A stretch of 64,000 nucleotides of DNA from Catajapyx aquilonaris (lineage: Eukaryota), in assembly GCA_000934665.2 (NCBI GenBank), contig KZ537955.1:62001-126000 (forward strand), given 5' to 3'. Under the pieces are notes generated by a model. That model was given only the letters and a program-made list of their open reading frames with translations. It did not search any database and was not told the origin of the DNA. Every line of letters begins with the position of its first letter. Position 1 is the first letter of the stretch. Of the stretch, positions 46,401 through 63,278 are shown one piece after another. Position numbers and translations under genes: made by a program.

Positions 46401-49400
46401 CAAGCCGGATTATACTGTATAGCCAGAAATAGAACGACTTTTGTCCCTCCGCCATTTCTGGTTAATAAGTGCATGGTTAGCTTTTTATTATTATTACAGG
46501 CCAGAGGGAAACGACCCTGCTGTTCTAAAAATCGCATGCCGCATGGGACTGCTGGGGGTTCCGGAATTATTGATAAAATTCTGTTGTCAGCATACGGTAG
46601 CGTGTACGGTATTCCGGGCGCCATGTTGTCCCGGCATTTTGTGACGTCATCGTTTGGGAAGGGCGGGGTTCTGGGGGGGTAGGAGGTGGGGGGCAAGGGG
46701 GGGGACAAAGGGGGGGAAGAGTCCGTTTCGAACGACGCCACTTTGGGGAAGAAGGAAAAAGGGAGATGGCGGCTGGGGAAATGGTCACTAACAAATTGTG
46801 GTGCCAGAAGGACCAGCAGACGGTAATTATATCAGGGGAAATAGTACCGGACTTTTGGTTCGGTAGGGTGGTCATATTTTGGGAACATACGGGGGGTCAA
46901 CTGAGGTCAGCAGTATTTAGAATAGGGAAGTGCAGCCCAGGGGGGTTATTAATAGGGTCAAATAATGTATATTTTTTAAATATTTTATGGCGTCTAAGGG
47001 CACGTTATTTTTATGTTTTGGTGTTTGGTCAGGGACTGGTTAGGATTGAAATAGCGTTTCTAAAGGAATGGCCAGGTTGGTTCTAATTTATTAACAGCAA
47101 GAGGGCCATTTTTGAAGAACACACAAAGGAGAATATGGGATGGAATTTTCGTCCCACTGCTAGATACTGTAGCAGTAACTAGCAGTGGATGTAAAGGTGC
47201 ATTTACATGTGAGCGCCGAGCAATTGTGTGGAGCGCAAGTAACAATTACAATAACAAACGTAACGTACGATCAAATCACTCGCATGTAAACACCGCTTAA
47301 TGGGTGGAATTTTCGTTGTAGTGGCAATGATGTAACGGATGCGGATGCAATTTTGTGTACTCCAGTTTAATATTCGGACCGCATTATGGCGGTTATTTGC
47401 GTAGGCAGGACTTGTGACCTTGCATTGCGCTTGGGTGTTAGAACCCATGAAAGTGTGTTGAGAGTATTTTTCCTTGCTGCTTTTTTCCCTGTTGAAAAAT
47501 ATTGTGGGACAAAGTGCTATGAGGGTGTATAAGTACTTTTAATTATTGCAGAGAAGCTTTGTCAGTTATATCGATAACTTCTGGCCATACTTACGCTGAA
47601 ACTTTGTGATTGATTCGCTGTACTAATTTGCATGCTTAAGCTGCTTGTTAAGAAGTTTCGTGTACAGGATGTAAAGTGAATTTATCCAGATATGTGTTGG
47701 GAGTTGATAGCATTTCCATTGTCCGTTTTGGGCGGGGTGGAGGGAAAGGCAGGTCTACCCATGACCTTGGTCATCCTGTGGGCCGGTGCGGAATGGCGGG
47801 TTTTGCAATGAAGAAGTATTTTGTTGGGTGGGATCTATTTGGCCCATTGGCATCAAAGGTCAATGACGCTCCCCTTCATGTTTCATTTAAGTGGTGGAAC
47901 TGCTGAAAATTGACAGTAAATGCAGGCCTTTACTCTATAAAATGTACTTCTCAACGGAAGAAGCAGAACTTTTCAGTGACTCGTGTGGAAGTGGTATAAT
48001 AATAGGCTAACTATTGATTCCAAAAGGATTGATACATAGATTATTTGGCATAAAAATCATTGGAAGTAGAGCATCCTCAATTATATTTTTGCAATAAGGA
48101 TTTACTAGGACTACCACTGTTGATATGCAGCGATGATAGTCTTCATTGAGGCAGGAAGACATATTGGAATAATATAAAGCAAGCTTGCATAACTTCATGT
48201 CCTTAAGTATTTCCCATTCAAAGGTCACACTTGTAATTCATTGCTGCTCAAGCACGATTCCAAGCATGAAGCTGTGAATTGTAAGGCATGTTTGAAACGT
48301 GATTTTAAATTTTTGCAGCGTGCAATGGGTTGGAGCCCGATCACGAGTCTTCCCAAGCAGCACCACCACTACCTGGCTGAGGAGGAAAGGCGACGGCACC
48401 ACCACCAGCAACAGCAGGTGCAGCAACAGCAACAGCAGCAGGTGCAGCATCTCCATCATCATCAACAGCAACAACAACAGCAGCAACAGCAAGAGGAAGA
48501 AGACAAAAGGAGAGAAGAGAGGAGAAGACTGGAGCATGAGAAGTTCCTGGCTGACCATCGTCATCGCCAGCAACAGCACCATCATCAGCAGCAACAGCAG
48601 CATCAACAACAGCAACAGCACCACCAGCAGCAGCAACATCATCAGCAACAGCAACAGCAGCAACATCACCACCAACAACAGCAGCAGCAGCAGCAGCAGC
48701 AAGAGGAGGAGGCGAGGAGGCATCAGGAGCATCGGGAGAGAGAACGAGCTTATTACACCTCATCAGTGGTAAGTCATTGTATACCATCAAACTGTTAGTG
48801 CCATTCATGGGACAGAATGAGGCCTCCTCAATTGCTGCATGCTGTAATTTAATTGTTTGACAGTCGTTATTGTCTGCCAAAAACCACTTGCGTATAATTT
48901 ACCGGAGGGATGGGATCAACAAGTAATAAATAAACCTGAGTTTGACGTTATCGATCTGTATTGTAATCTTATTGTACTACTGTTACAGGTCCGTCCCCCG
49001 TCATCCGGAAAGGTTGACTTCACCTCTGCTGCGCTCCTGAGCAAGGCGGACAAGGTCTCGCCTGTACCTCCCCCTCCCCCTCCGCCTCCAGCCCCTGCAT
49101 CACTTCCCAAAGCTGAACCAAGCTTCAATCTGTTTGGCTACCACCATTACCAGCAGCACTATGCTGCTGCTCACTATGGCCAGCAGGAAAAGCTCAAGGT
49201 AGCAATGGACAAGCAGCAGGTGGCAGCTCCACCAAGGAAAGCGGACCTTCCTGCACCTCCGCCATTACTTAGTGATATGAAGGGTGTCATAATGCAGGCT
49301 GACAAGTCCAAACACTATCAGGTGAAGGTTGGTGAATACCAACACCATCGTGGGCCAAGTCCTCACCATCCGGCACCACAACCACCACCACCACCACATT

Positions 49401-52400
49401 CCTCACCTCATCATGCATCTATCGAGGCGCAGAATTTGATCAAGAGCGGGAAACATCCTCATCCTGCGCACTCCATCCCGCCGGAGAGGGTGTACGGCGT
49501 TCCATACAAGATGGCCTACCCACCGCCATACATACAGGGCTATGCTCCAGTACCTCCTGCACCTATGGCAGCTCCCAATAAGCCGAAGGTGAGCAGCCCT
49601 GCACCTCAGCAGATCTATGGAAAGCCATCTGTTGGGGTTGGCATAACTGCCGGGGTTCCTGTGTGTCGTGTAGACACACCAGTACCCCTCATTTCCAAGC
49701 CTGCCTACCAGGCACCCCCAATGCCGGTTGGGCCACCGCCACCACCAGCTCATAGTGCAAGCCGAGTAATGTATTCTCCCAACAAGTCACCAGCACCGTC
49801 CACACCCCCAGCACCAGCACAGTGCCAACCACTTGACTTGGCCGGTGTGCCACCAATTGGTTCCACATCACCCAAGAGAAAGGCTGAACCTGAGGATGCT
49901 GCAGCTAAGCGGCGGAGGAGTGACACCCCAGTACTGGCAAGGGTGAGTGAGCCAAGTCCGCTGATGGCTGGTGCGGCCAGCACTATCGCAATGGTGGTCA
50001 ACACTGCAGTGGCGACAGTTACATCAATGGCAACAACAACAACTGTTGCTGCCCCCACCACCACCACCACCCCTGCTCCTGCCCATGCACCTCCACCGCA
50101 GCCTGTGCCAGAGCGTTCTGCAAGCCCACAAGTCAAGTCCAGCTACCCTGTTCACAAGCTCAAGAAGGCATGGCTTGAACGCCATTCTGGTGACAAGGAC
50201 AAGACCGAGGTGGCAACACCAGCTCCAACACCTCCGCCGGCACCGCCTCCACCAACTCCTCCATCACTCCCAAAAAAATTAGTTGGGAAGCCTGGTCGGA
50301 AAGGGAAGGACAAGAGACCCCTCATGAATGGGCATGCTGACAAGGCGCCGGATGAGTCCAGCAGTTCAGCCAGTGAAACCGAAGTGAAGTTAGCCCCAAA
50401 GCGTAAACCACCAAAGGTGAAGAAGAAAGGGAAGGGGCGCGTCAAGACCAAGAAACCTGTTGCCACTGCCCCAGTGCCTAGTGATAGCCAGTCAGACAGT
50501 GACAAGGAGAGTGGGAGTGATAAGGATTCAGATGACAAGCGCAAGACCAAGGAGGCAAAGGAGCCTCGTAAAAGGGGACGTAAGCCGAAATCTGCGACAG
50601 GTGCCACCAATGGGAATGGTAGTGCCAACTTAAATGGTGGTGGAAGTGAGGACCGACGCCCAGCCAAAAAGATGAGGGAGGACACGTCAGGGCCTCCTCA
50701 AAAACCGTCACAACCGCCTTCACAACCGCCTCCGTCACAAGACCCCTTTCGTAAACCACCAGTTTCTCAGCTGAAGAAGACGGGGGAGAGCTTCCTGCAA
50801 GACGGGCCTTGTTGGGAAGTCGCCCCAAAGCTGGGTAAATGCAGGGAATGCAGGTGGACGCCACACCAACGGAGCAAGAAGATGAGCAACATCTTCTGCC
50901 GGTTCTATGCCTTCAGGCGTCTGCGGTATACCAAGAACGGGCAGCTGGCCATTGCAGGATTTTCCCATCCAAAGAGGGACGCTTCTGAGGATGACCTGAA
51001 GCTCTGGCTCCCACAGAGAGACAACCCTCCAAAGGATCTTGACATTGATATGTCAAGGTTCCTCCTAACACAGGTAAAGACCAAACGTTATTGGCTTGAT
51101 ACTGTACATGTTTGGAAGTTACCTTTAAAAAAAATTCACATTGCTGTAAGCAGCATGATAAGCTAATGTGACCATTTGTGCACAAAACACATTGAATTAA
51201 TACGCAATAAAATAGCGCATGGAATAGAAAAGCAGGCATGATGAAATTTCTGATGGCATAATACAATACACTAGGGCATAATATGCGAGAAGTGCAAGAC
51301 TAAGAGGTTGTTTCATCATGTTGGTGAGATGTCTTGCCAATATGTTATACTGATGTAATGTTGGGTTGATATGGGTCTTATCTCATCTTGCGTGCATTGA
51401 TAGTCCCATTCCATAAATCATCGTGCTTCATTACAAGGTTATGTGCACTTGGCATGTTTAGCGGACTAATTGCTGGTGCAATTCCAGCCATGATTATTGA
51501 TCTGCAGGCAAACAATGGAAGTTAAATGCACAGGGTATAATCTTGATAATAATGCGCCCATTCCTTCATTTTACGAGGACTGGTTGTAAATCAATGAATT
51601 GATTTGTGGTTGAGCACACTCAATTTATCATGATCGTTATTTGCGAACTGTTAAGAGGCGACATGCTTGAATGTCAAAAGCATTTTTAAAAAGTCAGCCC
51701 ATTTGTGAGATACAAATCTATAACCAAGACTGACATCATTTGCATGCATGTCAGCTTTTCTGATAGGTGATGTGCTGGGGATAGTGTTTTAGGTGTGTCA
51801 TAGGTCAATTTATTTTAACTTGATCCGATTCAACTCTGCAAGTGATGAGATCAGTGAGAATTGAAATGCAATGAAAATTACCAATCTGAGCTCTTTAACC
51901 GTCTGATGCAGTGTTGTTATTATTTTTACAATGTACTGATGTGAACAAGATCGTGTGTTTCAATGCCCTTTGCTGTATTTTTGGGACAGGTTGGGGACCA
52001 GTTCTGTGATCTGGTGGTCCAAGAGAAAGAAGCGGTGAAGATTCACATGGGTGAAGAGAAAGATAAGGATGCCGTTGCGTGGAAACGAGTAGTGCAGGGT
52101 GTACGCGAGATGTGTGACGTGTGCGAGACCACACTATTCAACTACCACTGGGCCTGTGGGAAGTGTGGATTCGTAGTGTGCATTGACTGCTACAAGGGAC
52201 GGCGCAATGGGACCATAAAGGTGTGGGGGGAGACCGGGAAGGACAGGGATGAGTTTTCCTGGCTGCTGTGCACCAACCGGCAGATGCATGAGCAGGACAA
52301 GCTGATGCTCACGCAAATCATAGCCGGTGAAGCCCTCACACAGCTCGGAGGACAGTTGCACAGGATGAGGCATCGGTGGGGGATTGGGCAGTACTGTGAT

Positions 52401-55400
52401 TGTGAGGAGAGTAAGCGGCTCAAAGAAGAAGGCGGAAGCATCGTCACGGCAGGTGCGAACGGTATTTGCAAGGATTTGGCCAAGGGTGTGAAAAAAGAGC
52501 CGGTGAATGGCGTCATCAAAAGTGAACCAGGAGCGGAGAAAGAGGAAGGTGGGAGTGACGTAAAGCAGGAGGAGGGCAACTCTGCCCTCAGCTGGCTGGC
52601 CGATGTGGCTCTTGGTGAGAAGAAGGAGGCCTGCGAGGTGAGTGTGGCATGTTGGTTGTTTTTACATGACGGTGTGTGCATCTTGAGTTATGATGGAATG
52701 ACTTTAAGAAAATATTGTTATGACAGTTGTTGTAAGACTAATAGAACTGCAGTAGTGCTTCCCTGTTTCTTCCCGTAATAAGAGTAGCTTCCCGCATTTT
52801 CATTATTAAAGTTGCAGACTTCTTGTACAAATGGATAATCCAAACAAATATTATTGCATAAGGAAGAACACTGACAAAGCTGTTGAGACAATTGATATTG
52901 ACATGTGTTATGAAAACATGCCTGCATTTAAATGCTAGAGAGGAAAATAATGCTACGGATCTGTTTCCATAGGCATGTGGTGCCGTTGCTACTTTTAAAA
53001 ATAGTTCCGTACAAAATATTTACTTTTGCGTGTGTTGCATTATTGCAACTAACCTTGCATTTTTTTTTGTGGTGTTGTTGACTTGTACTGATATGGAATC
53101 ACTGAAGATGCATTGACAAACATGGAATGCTGTGGTGTGATGATAACTAACTGAACGTTAGCCTGTAACAAGGCTATGGCGAGATATCATAGCCGTTTAC
53201 CCATCTGACACTGCATCCAATCACTGTAGCCGTGAGACCTGAGTTGCTGATGAAACGTTACTTGATTTGGTGATTATGTTACAGCCATTCTACAATGTGT
53301 TGTTGTTGCAGGATTCGGCCAGCACCACCGATTCTGATGAAGAGAAGGGTGAGAACTACTCCACTCTGCGTGAACTTCTGATCCGTCCTTCTGGAAAGCC
53401 TAATGGCAACAGTGGCCAGGCATCTTCACCTGGCACTCCCACCACGTCCTCAGGGGCATCCTCTACCACGCCTGCTCCCCGCCCCCAAAAGAAGCTCAAG
53501 GTGGAGACCACCTTAGACGAAGTGATATCCCATGTGATAGAGCACAGCGTGGAGAAGCATGACCACCAGCGAGGGGAACAGGTCCCGATGGTGCTGAAGC
53601 ACTTTGTGAGGAAAGTGTGCATCCCACAGAAGGGAAGGGAACCACTGCCCATCCGTATCATGACGCTGGCCGAGAGCACCTTGCTCTACCCCAACCTGCC
53701 ACACACGTGGCTTTGTGATGGGAAACTGCTCAGGCTTCATGATCCCATCCATGATAACAATTACAGGATATTCCAGGTAATTGGCTGCATTTGGAGCTTC
53801 AGTTGATATCTCGGATATAATAATTTATAAGGTGTCTTGATGATGACAACTTGAATGAAAGAATTACTGTGGTTACACAACTGCGTTCTTCACTGAGAGA
53901 CCATGCATAATTTGCTTTTAGTAACGAAGAAACAAAGTTCATTGCTGTGACTTCACTGTTGAGGACCAATGTCATTAATTCCACACTAATGGTTTGCAAT
54001 TGTTTCTTTTAGGACCAGTGGAAACGTGGGCAGCCCATAATGGTATCAGATGTGTCCAAGAAACTGGACATTGAGAACCTCTGGCACCCTGATGCATTTG
54101 CGAAAGACTTTGGGGACGTGAAAAATGACCTGATCAACTGCATGACAGGCAACATTGTCCCCAACCAGCCCATGAGGAAGTTCTGGGAGGGGTTTGAGAA
54201 CTTCTCGAAACGCCTTAAGGATGAACGGGGCAACTACATGCTTCTGAAGCTGAAGGACTGGCCGCCTGGCGAGGACTTTGCGGAGCTGCTTCCCTCCAGG
54301 TTCCAGGACCTGATGAAGGTCCTGCCCCTGTCTGAATACACACACAGGAACGGAAGGCTGAACCTGGCAAGCCGTCTTCCAGATTCGTTTGTGAGGCCAG
54401 ACTTGGGACCTAAGATGTACAATGCGTACGGCTCTGCGCTCTACCCAAGCAAAGGGACCACCAACATCCACTTGGACATCTCAGATGCTGTCAACGTCAT
54501 GGTGTACGTAGGGATACCAAAGGACGGCGACGACGACGAGCACATTAAAGGTTTGTTTCCCTCGGATTTGAGTTTAATATTTGGCAAGAATGTTAGGCTT
54601 TTTATTATCGTACTCATGTGAGTGTGATTGATTGAACAAATCGGTATCAGTGGCTGCAATGATGATGATTGATTGATTTTGAATCTCTGTGAAAACTTAC
54701 ATCATCGAGCTCTTTAACCATCTGATGCAGCCTGTACCGTAGCCCTTTCTTAACCACATCATCGCCAGTTAGCTCCATCTGATTTATCCGTTTCTTCCAA
54801 TTTACAGAAGCCTTGAAGGCTATAGATGAAGCGAGCTGTGACATACTGACCCGACGCAGGGTCCGTGATAAAGGAGAACTCCCTGGAGCCCTGTGGCACA
54901 TCTACCATGCTCGAGATGCAGACAAGATCCGCGACCTGCTGAACAAAGTGGCCCTGGAGAAAGGCGAGAAGCTGGAGCCGTACCACGATCCCATCCATGA
55001 CCAGAGCTGGTATCTGGACTCAACTTTGAGGGAGAGGCTCTACAAGGAGTACAGCGTAGAGGGGTACGCCATCGTGCAGTGCCTTGGAGACGCAGTCTTC
55101 ATTCCGGCTGGGGCACCACATCAGGTTAGTTGAACTAGTTGCCTTTGTTATTAGCTGCGTAAACTGTTGTGGCTTCTGCATGTGATGTGACAGTGATGTT
55201 ATTTGAAATCACGTGATTATTTTACTAAGCTCTTTAACCGTCTGATGCAGGCCTGAATATTTGTTTGGCAAATAAACTTGCATCTACTTTTACAGAAATT
55301 AACCATGCATTAATTTTTAACAGGTTCGGAATCTACACAACTGCATCAAAGTGGCAGAAGACTTTGTGTCACCCGAGAATGTGGGCCACTGCTTCCACCT

Positions 55401-55683
55401 GACGCAGGAGTTTCGGGAGCTGTCAGACACACACTCTAACCACGAAGACAAGCTACAGATTAAAAACATTATATACCACGCAGTGAAGGATGCCATTGCT
55501 GTGCTTGCCAGCCACGAACCTGAGGACATCTCCCCACCCGGGACTGGCCACCACACGCCAAAGTCCGCGACGCCCCCGCCGTCTGGGGCGTCTGAAGAGA
55601 TGGATACGAAAGTGAAGGAAGAGTCCCCAGAAGAGGAGCCTGAGATCAAGTCAGAGCCCATGGAGGAGAAAGGGAGTAGCTAG
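4259..55683 (+). CDS. KDM3: KDM3/JMJD1C-family (JHDM2) JmjC histone H3K9 demethylase, 5'-partial; join(4259-4420,4594-4710,9008-9211,10705-10789,13001-13074,16664-16766,38183-38852,40998-41945,45270-45534,48319-48768,48989-51073,51990-52637,53312-53776,54013-54550,54808-55124,55324-55683)
   Basis: All 15 introns are GT-AG and exon phases chain into one open frame (7491 nt, about 2496 aa). N-terminal exons resemble the JMJD1C/KDM3 N-terminus ([29 protein letters not shown]). The C-terminal half has [17 protein letters not shown], the Cys zinc finger, LRELL and a JmjC domain with HLD...H ligands. Confidence 0.95.
4594..4710 (+). CDS. KDM3: KDM3 exon: TFRCLQDE...[21 protein letters not shown]
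   Basis: ttgcag|ACG ... CAG|gtacct, 117 nt, phase 0/0; resembles JMJD1C TFKPL...VEFLVDKQLDF...QPYQ. Not in the ORF track. Confidence 0.9.
5137..5300. mobile_element. MITE-like element, about 31-bp inverted termini
   Basis: TGACTCTAAAGTCTGGACACATAGGTAATTG versus the reverse complement of CGATTACCTCTGTGTCCAGACTTTAGTGTCA (3 mismatches). Confidence 0.7.
5310..5490. mobile_element. Tc1/mariner-pogo-like MITE with TA target-site duplication
   Basis: TA|CCGTCAATTGGGGTGAGATTGTGCCAGCG ... CGCTGGCACAATCTGACCCCAATTGACGG|TA. Confidence 0.85.
9008..9211 (+). CDS. KDM3: KDM3 exon: EWRPNRS...[30 protein letters not shown]
   Basis: Pyrimidine tract tttag|GAA ... CAG|gtgcaa, 204 nt; resembles JMJD1C GYRVRVYRQDSATQWFTGII. 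Confidence 0.93.
10705..10789 (+). CDS. KDM3: KDM3 exon: [28 protein letters not shown]
   Basis: tttcgcag|GAG ... GAG|gtgagc, phase 0 to 1; resembles JMJD1C DQVLEPQNVDPSMVQM. Confidence 0.9.
11966..12255. mobile_element. Degenerate foldback / MITE
   Basis: Inverted arms 12019-12050 and 12185-12216 (GTCAACCCACA/TGTGGGTTGAC core); outer GGTGGCGCCA/TGGCGTCACC. Confidence 0.55.
13001..13074 (+). CDS. KDM3: KDM3 exon: (V)[24 protein letters not shown]
   Basis: ccctag|TG ... TCG|gtaagt, phase 1 to 0; resembles JMJD1[22 protein letters not shown]. Confidence 0.92.
16664..16766 (+). CDS. KDM3: KDM3 exon (low complexity, basic): TRGVRSKVV...PTRAHK
   Basis: Strong acceptor cttcttgtttttcag and donor AAG|gtaagg. 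Its 103 nt convert phase 0 to phase 1, exactly what is needed to join 13074 to 38183. No homology recognised. Confidence 0.75.
31999..32842. repeat. About 421-bp direct tandem duplication joined by a single N (probable assembly artefact)
   Basis: 31999-32420 and 32422-32842 differ by only a few bases; N at 32421. Confidence 0.9.
36402..36445. other. Assembly gap next to a poly-G run
   Basis: N run; a second gap at 56415-56447 lies within poly-C. Confidence 0.99.
38183..38852 (+). CDS. KDM3: KDM3 exon, Lys/Arg-rich disordered region
   Basis: Long pyrimidine tract ctgcag|TT, GC-rich open frame, donor AAG|gttcgt in phase 2 matching the acceptor at 40998. Confidence 0.8.
40998..41945 (+). CDS. 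KDM3: KDM3 exon, Ser/Pro/His-rich ([15 protein letters not shown])
   Basis: tttcag|C ... AAG|gtcagt, phase 2/2, 948 nt open. Confidence 0.88.
45270..45534 (+). CDS. KDM3: KDM3 exon, Arg-Glu repeat / predicted charged helix ending [14 protein letters not shown]
   Basis: cccgcag|A ... AAG|gtacgt, phase 2 to 0. Confidence 0.88.
46610..46775 (+). promoter_or_regulatory. Candidate internal promoter (YY1-like, CRE, GC box)
   Basis: GGCGCCATGTTG 46617-46628, TGACGTCA 46642-46649, GGGCGGGG 46661-46668, AGATGGCGGC 46764-46773. Confidence 0.5.
46766..46822 (+). CDS. Putative alternative first coding exon of KDM3 ([19 protein letters not shown])
   Basis: GAGATGGCGGC start in good context, 19 codons, then ACG|gtaatt donor in phase 0, compatible with the phase-0 acceptor at 48319; preceded by promoter-like motifs. 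Confidence 0.5.
48319..48768 (+). CDS. KDM3: KDM3 exon, polyQ/His-rich
   Basis: ttttgcag|CGT ... GTG|gtaagt, phase 0/0; mixed CAG/CAA/CAT/CAC repeats. Confidence 0.88.
48989..51073 (+). CDS. KDM3: KDM3 large exon: Pro-rich region, PLDL motif, HKLKKAWL, start of Cys-rich region ([20 protein letters not shown])
   Basis: ttacag|GTC ... CAG|gtaaag, 2085 nt open; conserved KDM3 motifs. Confidence 0.95.
51836..51911 (+). ncRNA. Intronic box C/D snoRNA, paralogue 1 of the AGCTCTTTAACC-guide family
   Basis: CTGCA/TGCAG terminal stem, box C GTGATGA 51842-51848, box D CTGA 51903-51906, 83 nt from the 3' splice site; guide shared with two other copies. Confidence 0.85.
51990..52637 (+). CDS. KDM3: KDM3 exon: zinc finger [41 protein letters not shown]
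   Basis: gacag|GTT ... GAG|gtgagt; hallmark KDM3 zinc finger. Confidence 0.97.
53131..53215 (+). ncRNA. Intronic box C/D snoRNA, SNORD87-like 28S rRNA 2'-O-methylation guide
   Basis: Box C GTGATGA 53137-53143, box D CTGA 53205-53208, stem TGTGGTG/CACTGCA; guide GCCGTTTACCC (53192-53202) is complementary to conserved 28S GGGUAAACGGC. Confidence 0.85.
53312..53776 (+). CDS. KDM3: KDM3 exon: STLRELL (LXXLL), [13 protein letters not shown]
   Basis: ttgcag|GAT ... CAG|gtaatt, phase 0/0. Confidence 0.95.
53834..53901 (+). ncRNA. Intronic box C/D snoRNA with 5.8S rRNA guide
   Basis: Stem GTCTT/GAGAC, box C ATGATGA 53840-53846, box D CTGA 53893-53896; guide CTGCGTTCTTCA is a perfect 12-nt complement of 5.8S UGAAGAACGCAG. 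Confidence 0.85.
54013..54550 (+). CDS. KDM3: KDM3 exon: JmjC N-terminal half ([30 protein letters not shown])
   Basis: ttttag|GAC ... AAG|gtttgt; H-x-D iron ligands intact. Confidence 0.97.
54652..54732 (+). ncRNA. Intronic box C/D snoRNA, paralogue 2 of the AGCTCTTTAACC-guide family
   Basis: 7-bp stem GGCTGCA/TGCAGCC, box C ATGATGA 54659-54665, box D CTGA 54722-54725, 82 nt from the 3' splice site. Confidence 0.85.
54808..55124 (+). CDS. KDM3: KDM3 exon: JmjC ([31 protein letters not shown])
   Basis: ttacag|AA ... CAG|gttagt; third His ligand intact. Confidence 0.97.
55176..55250 (+). ncRNA. Intronic box C/D snoRNA, paralogue 3 of the AGCTCTTTAACC-guide family
   Basis: Stem CTGCA/TGCAG, variant box C GTGATGT 55182-55188, box D CTGA 55242-55245, 78 nt from the 3' splice site. 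Confidence 0.8.
55324..55683 (+). CDS. KDM3: KDM3 last coding exon ([19 protein letters not shown]...[18 protein letters not shown]) to TAG
   Basis: taacag|GTT; conserved KDM3 C-terminus; stop at 55681-55683. Confidence 0.97.
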
Positions 55684-56896
55684 TTTGTGTTCCTGACAAT
55701 TCAATGTGCTATGATCTCATGTTGTTTGGATGGGGCGGGGGGGGGAAAAGAAAAGTCCGTCTTGGGGCATCGCTCACATTTTCCCTCCCCACCCTCCACC
55801 TCCAATGGACTTGGGTGCAAGAGTGACGTAGGGAGTGTGGGCCATATTGAACGTTTGTTGCGCTCCTTCCGCGCAAAAGTATCCCGCCCCCTCGTTTCTC
55901 GGCATTTTTGATCTCAAAAAGGTATTTGTGAAGCAAATTTGCACCGATGGACCATTTTTTTTTGTGGACACAGTGAAAGTGATGGAGGGCCTTCGAAAGA
56001 TTGGGCCTACTTGTTGGGCGTTCCATTAACTGTAAATAAGTATGTGTGTGGACATTTTTCTTCTCATCATTTTTTTTTTTTCTCCAAATGGTGTAATGTG
56101 TTTCATTGGGGGGTTTTTTTTCTTCTCAATCGATGAAAGCAAGTGTTTATAATAATTATTGTTACAAATTACTACAATTATTACCTTTATGCCAGGATTT
56201 TAAAACCATAAAAAAGAGCCATAACTTATTCCCCCCCCCGTCACCACCTGCTTTGTATAAGGGAATTTTCAGGTACATGGATAGGTGTGTGAAGAAGTGA
56301 AAAAAAGTGCATTTTTTGAGTGGGCGGTCTCCCAATGTATAAAGACAAAAAAAAACTAGATGTGTACATAATGGCATTACACATACAGTGTGACCTCCCT
56401 CTCTCCCCCCCCCCNNNNNNNNNNNNNNNNNNNNNNNNNNNNNNNNNGCCCCCCCCCCTTTTTTTTTGTTAGTGTTGAAGCCCTATTTGAAGGAGAGGAA
56501 AAAAAACGTTGGGGCAATTTTTTGTACTGTGTATAGATACGGAAAAAAAAGACGTTTAATAAGAAAAGATGTTCATATACACCAGCTGTGTTTATTTAGC
56601 TTCCCTCATTGCATTCGCCTTAGCAGCCTGTCATGTACTATAATCGCTCAAAAAAATGGGGAGACGATTGTGCATTTGGATTCAATGCAAAATCATTTCC
56701 CATCTTCTTGAGCGATATGAGCCATCGTTTTAATGCCTGCGAGATCGTAACCTTGCAATAATTTCTGTATTGCGTGGAATTACTGCCCTTCATTGCGTTA
56801 GTTCTCAACTGTCGCTTGTTTTCGCAAAAGTTTCAATGAATAGGAGTCACATCTTTGCAAAAGAAGGTCAACTGAACCATTTTAAACAAGGAACAA

Positions 56897-61639: not shown

Positions 61640-61905
61640 TTAATATTCCAGGTGCTTCTGTATCTGTTTGTTGCATAGCTCTCTGTCACAGTCATTGTGA
61701 AGAACTTGCCTCTCTGTGTAGATGCTGGTTGCTTTTTCTTAGAGAATTCATGCCATTTAGGGTGCTAGAATTGTGTGGAGCTGTTTTGTGTTAATATGGG
61801 TTTATTTGTGTTTTGTCTGTTTCTTACATTATCCAAAAATGTGTCTTGCCCTTATATGATGTTGTTTGTGGTTTGAGCTGTCTTCGTTTGCTTGGTTGTT
61901 ATTAT

Positions 61906-62600
61906 TAGAGTCCGGATTTTTAGGCCTGAAAAAACCTTGAAATTGACACTTAAATAGGCATGAAAAACCTCAAATAGGCACAAAAATTGTACATTTGCAG
62001 GCACATCGAGGATAATGTAACAGAAAATTAAAAATCTTGACAAATTTTATAGGTCTGAAGTATAAATATAAGGTCACAAACCAGAGCAAAAACCAAATAA
62101 CAATGATAAACTGACAGAAAATCACAAAACTTGGGCAAAGTCACAAAGTGCAAGCAAGCATCACTTGCTCTGGACTTGACCGCTTACAGCCCATTTCCAC
62201 GTGCACAGTATGCTACCAAATATTTTTCTAGATTTTCCTGTGATTGGAACTGTCTTCTGGCTCATATGTGTCATGGCAACATGATTTGTATTACTTCTGT
62301 ATGATTTTGGTCCTTTAAGGAGCACAAAAAATAGTCCGCAAATAAAACCAAACATGCCTCTGAAGAAATAGGTCCGTAATAGGCCCAAAAAGTCCCAAAA
62401 TTGCTTCAAAAAGTTCAAAAACTATGCCAAAATAGGCGAAATAGGCAAAATAGTTTCTAAAACCATGAAATAGGCAATTTTAGGCACTGTCAACCGCACA
62501 TTTTACACATCCTGCACTTATGAAACGAATAGGTCTCTTCACAAAACCATCCAAACTGTAAAGGAACTAAATAAGCATTTGCCTAAAAAACCGGACTTTA
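61906..62600. mobile_element. Non-autonomous hAT-like element
   Basis: TIRs TAGAGTCCGGATTTTTAGGC / GCCTAAAAAACCGGACTTTA; 8-bp flanks GTTATTAT / GTTGTTAT; many internal TAGGC subterminal repeats. Confidence 0.8.
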
Positions 62601-63093: not shown

Positions 63094-63170
63094 GTCTAGA
63101 TTGTATGCATGTATGCACTCTATATGTATAATCACTTTCACATACTTGGGTGCAAGACCTTGTACCTGGT

Positions 63171-63278
63171 GTCCAACAAGAATTGTCGCAAGCGGCAGCG
63201 CACGAACTACAGTCTCTCGTATACCTGTGCTCGTAGATTGTAGTTCGTGCGCTGCCGCTGCGACAATTCTTGTTGGAC
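63171..63278. repeat. Near-perfect 108-bp hairpin (palindromic MITE or hairpin RNA)
   Basis: GTCCAACAAGAATTGTCGCA(A)GCGGCAGCGCACGAACTACA ... TGTAGTTCGTGCGCTGCCGCTGCGACAATTCTTGTTGGAC. Confidence 0.85.

Follow-up and report, generated by a model that had tools for sequence, protein, structure and literature searches.

What is a histone demethylase gene doing with a guide RNA candidate for ribosomal RNA (rRNA) methylation in one intron after another? This question is raised by a stretch of DNA of 64,000 nucleotides (nt) from Catajapyx aquilonaris (contig KZ537955.1, positions 62,001 to 126,000), referred to here as the window, in which a KDM3-type gene carries one box C/D small nucleolar RNA (snoRNA) candidate in each of its last five introns. 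The answer proposed here is that these units very probably represent five intronic box C/D snoRNAs of the KDM3 gene, predicted to guide rRNA methylation, and that the association of the SNORD36-type members among them with this host is old.

In animals, box C/D snoRNAs are intronic, lie sense to their host and stand about 70-100 nt 5' of the 3' splice site. Such a molecule is a stable RNA of 60-100 nt, bound by fibrillarin, Nop56, Nop58 and Snu13, and its antisense element of about 10 nt or more ends beside box D or box D'. The five units of the window, named u1 to u5 in the order of the introns, are the following:

51836-51912, plus strand, 77 nt: u1, SNORD36-type unit; box C GTGATGA at 51842-51848, guide at 51887-51902, box D CTGA at 51903-51906
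53131-53215, plus strand, 85 nt: u2, predicted 28S guide; box C GTGATGA at 53137-53143, guide at 53192-53204, box D CTGA at 53205-53208
53834-53901, plus strand, 68 nt: u3, predicted 5.8S guide; box C ATGATGA at 53840-53846, guide at 53881-53892, box D CTGA at 53893-53896
54652-54733, plus strand, 82 nt: u4, SNORD36 family member; box C ATGATGA at 54659-54665, guide at 54706-54721, box D CTGA at 54722-54725
55176-55251, plus strand, 76 nt: u5, SNORD36-type paralog; variant box C GTGATGT at 55182-55188, guide at 55228-55241, box D CTGA at 55242-55245

All five units lie on the sense strand, one per intron, and each of the five window introns is occupied. A box D CUGA near the 3' end and a terminal stem of 5-7 bp are present in every unit (6 bp in u2 and 7 bp in u4, with CTGCA/TGCAG shared by u1 and u5, and GTCT(T)/(G)AGAC in u3). 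The 3' splice site follows the end of box D by 83, 103, 116, 82 and 78 nt in u1 to u5, in agreement with the 78-116 nt of the preliminary description, and the end of the unit itself lies 72-111 nt from that site. The anatomy given in that description holds for the coordinates, the CTGA and the stems of all five units and for the RTGATGA box C of u1-u4, which is an exact RUGAUGA; in u5 it has to be amended, as this box reads GUGAUGU, with T/U in place of the last A.

The chance that such units arise at random was estimated with a strict scanner, which asked for RTGATGA, a CTGA 55-110 nt further on and a terminal stem of 4 bp or more, on both strands of the 64 kb. Five distinct box C sites were recovered, namely u1-u4 and one site on the minus strand at 49318-49414, and 100 dinucleotide-preserving shuffles gave a mean of 0.55 sites and a maximum of 2. 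For the 2,282 sense-strand intron bases the chance expectation is about 0.0098 units, compared with four strict units observed. The fifth unit, u5, was missed solely because its box C is GTGATGT. The minus-strand site, which lies antisense within the large KDM3 exon, is the only other strict combination of boxes and stem in the window; as a snoRNA it is taken as a chance match. A candidate at about 61856-61929 (D box at 61926), which came from the scan for rRNA complements and has no terminal stem, is also taken as chance.

Family membership provides a second line of evidence. With Rfam at gathering thresholds, the only match in the whole 64 kb is u4, which belongs to SNORD36 (RF00049) at 54654-54731 with 37.7 bits against a threshold of 30, and a relaxed scan of the window brought up no further credible snoRNA. 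When u1, u4 and u5 are aligned together with 20 nt of flanking sequence, 22 of 23 consecutive columns are invariant over the guide, box D and the 3' stem, and the flanks do not align (no invariant column on the 5' side and two on the 3' side). The interior is about half identical, and the 5' stem, the core of box C, a D'-like TTGA and a C'-like TGA are also invariant. This pattern of an unchanging guide and boxes between unrelated flanks suggests that u1, u4 and u5 are old SNORD36-type duplicates under selection for the guide and for the boxes that bind protein.

A separate observation concerns the first 48 nt of u5 (55176-55223). In the DNA sequencing run X1 this segment forms a contig of its own, with a depth of 77.5 compared with about 29 for its surroundings, and from each of its ends other contigs continue into unrelated sequence; the two loose ends have 13 bases in common. 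The higher depth and the alternative exits indicate that the 5' part of u5 occurs at least once more at another place in the genome, perhaps with a direct repeat around it. Within the window, neither the 13-mer nor a second copy of the segment was found.

The guides were compared with an rRNA reference of about 5.8 kb, in which the large subunit (LSU) is incomplete and which derives from non-arthropod eukaryote contaminants in prokaryote assemblies. It consists of L029, with a near-complete small subunit (SSU, a fungus-like 18S) together with the 5.8S and the beginning of the LSU; of L020, the 5' part of the LSU; and of L155, which covers LSU model positions 1937-2705 and came from a search of five genomes. 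Scanning prokaryote assemblies for a 5.8S motif gave at least 74 loci, and 7 of the 20 that were checked with Rfam contain eukaryotic rRNA; L029 is the only one of these loci that holds the 18S site. The 18S motif gave no match in viral contigs. Among the contigs of metagenome-assembled genomes, one of 2,858 nt (L034) is probably an assembly chimera: one strand has bacterial SSU and LSU fragments plus two tRNAs, and the opposite strand has SSU and 5.8S fragments of eukaryotic origin. A first duplex score, in which G-U pairs counted half and one mismatch was allowed, was not discriminating (the observed value was matched by 1-39 of 200 shuffles), and stricter counts were used instead.

The guide of u2 forms 11 contiguous Watson-Crick pairs with the LSU rRNA of L155 at its positions 3-13, a length reached by 6 of 1000 shuffled guides, and its position 5 stands opposite the third G of a G-run. 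The D' guide of the Rfam SNORD36 consensus pairs in the same L155 stretch, 5' of the u2 target, and the A paired by it lies 20 nt 5' of the G that faces u2 position 5. Human SNORD36B and SNORD36C, located in RPL7A, have 18S A668 and 28S A3703 as targets, with A3703 guided by SNORD36C, according to the available parts of PMC3511933 and PMC8881200. Since the G in question lies 20 nt 3' of the A3703 equivalent, the predicted target of u2 is the 28S G equivalent to human G3723, the SNORD87 site, an assignment which assumes that the 20-nt stretch has no indel between human and L155.

The guide of u3 forms 12 contiguous pairs with the 5.8S of L029 at positions 1-12, directly abutting box D, and 5 of 1000 shuffled guides reach this length. 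Its position 5 is opposite G41 of the L029 5.8S, within the conserved 5' motif. The conserved methylated G (Gm; Drosophila 74, human 75, Arabidopsis 79) was taken as L029 position 74, and since G74 is thereby set as Arabidopsis Gm79, the methylated A of Arabidopsis (Am47) and Neurospora (Am42) falls on L029 position 42.

The three SNORD36-type guides, u1, u4 and u5, match the 18S segment targeted by SNORD36 in a duplex of 12-15 bases that is broken by a single C-A mismatch at guide position 10; the u5 guide is one pair shorter than those of u1 and u4. A 13-mer with at most one mismatch to 18S is present in u1 and u4 and in none of 100 shuffled guides, and it is absent from u5 against the fungus-like 18S of L029. 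Two bases, GT or AT, stand between the consensus guide and box D in all three, and because of them position 5 would face a U two bases 5' of A668. Thus, a predicted antisense element can be recognised in every unit: it is perfect over 11 nt in u2 and 12 nt in u3, and it extends over 12-15 nt with the C-A mismatch in u1, u4 and u5.

These properties outline how the units would operate. The host pre-mRNA is spliced, as was observed. Once the intron is debranched, each snoRNA would be released from it by trimming and would assemble, in the manner of its family, with fibrillarin, Nop56, Nop58 and 15.5K/Snu13. The guide 5' of box D would pair with pre-rRNA, and the 2'-O-methyl group would be placed on the nucleotide opposite guide position 5. 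For u1, u4 and u5 this would be the 18S U two bases 5' of A668, for u2 the G3723 equivalent of 28S, and for u3 a G of 5.8S.

The host of the units is a gene for a KDM3-type JmjC histone demethylase, an H3K9 demethylase, as judged from its predicted protein, and its parts are arranged as follows:

48848-51073, plus strand: large KDM3 exon, 3' end spliced to 51990 in an X5 contig
51074-51989, plus strand: intron 1, 916 nt, GT..AG, holding u1; skipped in an X5 contig
51990-52637, plus strand: KDM3 exon with the zinc-finger region, from frame, splicing and tblastn
52638-53311, plus strand: intron 2, 674 nt, GT..AG, holding u2; spliced contig
53312-53776, plus strand: KDM3 exon, from frame and splicing
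53777-54012, plus strand: intron 3, 236 nt, GT..AG, holding u3; spliced contig
54013-54550, plus strand: KDM3 exon with the start of the catalytic domain; human KDM3B in PDB at 5.7e-69, insect KDM3 proteins at 86-91% identity
54551-54807, plus strand: intron 4, 257 nt, GT..AG, holding u4; spliced contig
54808-55124, plus strand: KDM3 exon with JmjC; Pfam PF02373 at 3.1e-10
55125-55323, plus strand: intron 5, 199 nt, GT..AG, holding u5; spliced contig
55324-55683, plus strand: last KDM3 coding exon including the stop codon, from frame and splicing

The six plus-strand segments join into a single frame of 4,554 bases with one terminal stop, and all five gaps between them are GT..AG. The large exon has an open frame from 48848, its putative 5' limit, and tblastn with insect KDM3 proteins aligns from 49103. 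The identity of the gene, as proposed in the preliminary description, was borne out by the Pfam JmjC match (3.1e-10, at 54810-55124) and by solved structures, among which exon 54013-54549 matched human KDM3B best (5.7e-69) and JMJD1C next (2.1e-55). A search of a protein collection with this fourth exon placed 1,401 of 1,702 candidates at E <=1e-20; the best named matches are insect proteins called KDM3A or KDM3B, which are 86-90% identical. The second exon is less conserved, with about 62% identity to cockroach and to decapod proteins alike, which places the animal among the pancrustacean arthropods.

Direct evidence for the introns came from X5, a sequencing run of the same coded organism whose run type is not on record. 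Contigs of X5 skip 916, 674, 236, 257 and 199 bases exactly at the predicted intron borders, and the corresponding joints were not seen in the DNA run X1. The KDM3 gene is therefore transcribed and its five introns are real, and the arrangement described beforehand, one unit in each of the last five introns, stands. In four Logan contigs that are 89-91% identical in the fourth exon (P0001, P0002, P0004 and P0007), the frames run unbroken through the positions of window introns 2 and 3 and end just past the donor site of intron 4. These genes seem to be without the introns that hold u2 and u3 here, because their frames are unbroken there.

If the units were guides of long standing, their traces might be expected in the KDM3 genes of other animals. 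An alignment of KDM3 exon 4, used as query against metagenome contigs, brought up 80 loci with a total of 553,813 nt, several of which are spliced transcripts without introns. All of these were searched on both strands for the three guides, each followed by CTGA within 10 nt. The SNORD36 guide with CTGA matched only sense-strand KDM3 introns, twice in locus L076 and once each in L075 and L083:

L076 3408-3477, sense strand: copy A, box D about 85 nt from the 3' splice site
L076 5008-5082, sense strand: copy B, identical in L075 (a duplicate), box D about 71 nt from the 3' splice site
L083 1932-1997, sense strand: copy with box D about 72 nt from the 3' splice site, the latter placed from the reading frame only

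Over 475 amino acids, the large exon of L076 shows 100% identity to a protein assigned by NCBI to Atta colombica; for L083 the nearest proteins are those of lice (about 79%). Both L076 copies exceed the Rfam SNORD36 threshold, with 34.6 and 33.9 bits. In the ant copies the spacing between guide and box D is canonical and they point at A668; the L083 copy combines a canonical U-run guide with the longer spacing seen in the window. In both L076 and L083 a copy lies in the intron after the CIDCYK motif, an intron that is absent from the window, and one of the five window introns (intron 4 only) has the same position in L076. Within the covered part of L076 a copy is present in about two of six introns, and two others that were read show no boxes. 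The strict scanner gave five plus-strand and two minus-strand matches in the 80 loci, none of them convincing; the AT-rich ant copies were missed because they have no terminal stem. The exact window guide with box D had no match in the metagenome contigs. Taken together, the sequences suggest that the link between SNORD36-type units and a KDM3 host is conserved with an ant-like and another insect locus, not in the same introns, which argues that the link is old. The inspection of related KDM3 introns, which the preliminary description had proposed, was thus successful for the SNORD36-type units; the guides of u2 and u3 did not reappear and the introns mostly differ.

A number of observations weigh against the interpretation of the units as five working guides. 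In the relaxed Rfam search u1 and u5 matched SNORD36 with 27.9 and 21.2 bits (E 9.3 for u5), both below the gathering score of 30, and u2 and u3 have no Rfam family: the sole match of u2 is sn2343, with 20.6 bits against a gathering score of 60, and those of u3 are at chance level (22 and 21 bits). The L083 copy is not in the Rfam output at E <=1, the guides of u2 and u3 with CTGA were not found in the 80 loci of relatives, and model R1, searched over 81 sources, returned only its six training sequences and the L075 duplicate, which gives no independent support. The box C of u5 deviates in its last base. Folding energies are unremarkable (z-scores of 0.32 for u1, 0.21 for u3 and -0.79 for u5), which is usual for box C/D snoRNAs. 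The X5 contigs span exons only, with the introns uncovered, and are uninformative on snoRNA expression. On the side of the targets, the rRNA reference is not this animal's own. All three SNORD36-type guides place a C opposite a conserved 18S A, and their longest perfect 18S complement is 7-8 nt, a length attained by 449-913 of 1000 shuffled guides. The U faced by their position 5 is the first U of the UU before the A-run, so that the register misses the known A668; that of u3 misses the known 5.8S A, which plants and Neurospora methylate, by one base on the 5' side. Upstream of the D' boxes, complements to the approximately 5.8 kb of rRNA did not exceed 9 nt.

Different explanations can be built on these points. 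It is extremely improbable that the motifs co-occur by chance or are functionless relics of repeats: the box motifs are indeed short, and one chance-like match exists at 49318-49414 on the minus strand, but about 0.01 units would be expected where four strict ones occur, an Rfam match reaches the gathering level, and paralogs and orthologs conserve the guide and the boxes only. A less radical view, somewhat unlikely as it is, would accept only some units as working guides, with u4 functional and u5, perhaps also u1, being decaying paralogs that are poorly assembled or unused. The box C GTGATGT of u5, its 21.2 bits and its guide, shorter by one pair, would fit such decay, as would the score of u1 below the gathering level and the occurrence of the 5' 48 nt of u5 elsewhere in the genome with other flanks, suggesting that the family has shed fragments. 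However, the guide, box D and stem of u5 equal those of u1 at 22 of 23 positions despite fully diverged flanks, and a Drosophila snoRNA with box C AUGAUGU is marked in the expression column of Table S6 of PMC11014333, a source available in part.

It may also be supposed that the units are made and some of them do not direct methylation at the predicted positions, acting instead as chaperones of pre-rRNA folding or processing (as u3 might on 5.8S), pairing with a different RNA that is fully complementary to the C-containing guide, or being orphans. This is distinctly unlikely, and it draws on the facts that position 5 of u1, u3, u4 and u5 does not fall on sites known in other organisms and that the C-A mismatch occurs in three of three SNORD36-type guides. 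In the available part of PMC11014333, Drosophila RiboMeth-seq gives no methylated nucleotide between Um586 and Am1061 of 18S, and Gm74 alone in 5.8S. On the other hand, L083 has the same two-base spacing with a canonical U-run, and its 18S duplex is uninterrupted save for G-U pairs beside box D; the register is thus conserved and looks used. Nor did the 5.8 kb of rRNA examined contain a better target. The prediction of five intronic snoRNAs in KDM3 is retained as very probable. The claim in the preliminary description that these are real snoRNAs is upheld as a prediction by the Rfam match of u4, the conservation among paralogs, the guides that match rRNA beside box D and the KDM3 introns of two insects, and the Rfam run proposed there yielded u4 at the gathering level, u1 and u5 in the same family below threshold, and no family for u2 and u3.

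Comparison with described snoRNAs places the units among known kinds. Human SNORD36A, B and C lie in introns of RPL7A, and yeast snR47 is their counterpart. With SNORD36/U36 (RF00049) the SNORD36-type units of the window share the box C/D architecture and a D guide on the same 18S segment; the window guide has 12 of 13 bases in common with the Rfam consensus, and u4 is over the family threshold. As in human RPL7A (PMC3511933, in its available part), one host gene houses several paralogs, each in an intron of its own. The host is different, being a histone demethylase gene here and a ribosomal protein gene in human, and so are the guides, which have two more bases before box D, one U-to-C change and no D' guide for A3703, the longest rRNA complement after box C being 7 nt. 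Human SNORD87, the guide for 28S G3723, has a non-coding gene as its host. The likeness of u2 to it is confined to position 5, which falls on the G corresponding to G3723; no sequence homology is detectable (no SNORD87 match at E <=10 in the Rfam search over 50500-56500), the hosts differ, and the u2 site is not among the 42 mapped Drosophila 28S sites in the available part of PMC11014333. The u3 guide reads the same conserved 5.8S motif as plant snoR9 (5.8S Am47) and Neurospora CD29 (5.8S Am42), with a register one base off, at the G just 5' of that A, and the three are likened by target only. CD29, moreover, uses a D' guide and also targets U2 snRNA, whereas u3 uses a D guide.

As for the host, Drosophila genes with multiple snoRNAs (Uhg and protein-coding ones) also hold their snoRNAs singly, one to an intron, and members of a paralog family occupy adjacent introns, as seen in the accessible part of PMC11014333. 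There, the commonest protein-coding hosts are ribosomal protein genes, followed by those of biogenesis and translation factors, and protein-coding hosts outside translation are already known. The names JHDM2, Kdm3 and CG8165 have no occurrences in the portion of its text and its supplement with the host-gene table that was available. No description of KDM3 or JHDM2 as a snoRNA host was found in the literature, in a search that cannot exclude one, and this agrees with the earlier statement that KDM3/JMJD1C was not known to have been described in this role. Automated genome annotation may already mark SNORD36 matches of this type.

Two further hairpins in the window lie apart from the KDM3 units. 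At 63170-63275, on the minus strand, the sequence forms an almost perfect hairpin of about 37 bp (-74 kcal/mol, z -14.3) with sub-threshold matches to microRNA (miRNA) models, such as mir-228 with 30.2 against 45 bits; its appearance fits a long inverted repeat better than the precursor of a miRNA. Just 3' of the KDM3 stop codon, at 55720-55815, a hairpin-like stretch rich in G and in C gave several weak miRNA-model matches on both strands, all far under threshold.

The units are thus new representatives of snoRNA kinds already described, housed in an unusual host gene, and nothing in them alters the known mechanism of box C/D snoRNAs. Only two features, the shift of the guide register and the base change common to the guides, would go beyond the ordinary, and both are predictions. 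A more far-reaching joint reading, unlikely to hold as a whole, would see KDM3 as a dedicated SNORD36 home since before the split of this pancrustacean, ants and the L083 insect, with the snoRNA cargo deciding which introns survive. In such a scenario the two-base change in spacing would have retargeted the guides from Am668 to a lineage-specific Um two bases upstream, and the shared U-to-C change would either track a change in this animal's 18S or tune the extent of methylation.

If the RNAs are made, methylation at three rRNA positions would depend on the transcription of a chromatin-modifier gene and not of a translation gene. The register-shifted guides predict a methylated U beside a deeply conserved methylated A. 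Finally, the SNORD36-type units in differing KDM3 introns would offer a small, clean case for the movement of snoRNAs between introns of one host, and the same case bears on whether snoRNAs protect introns from loss.

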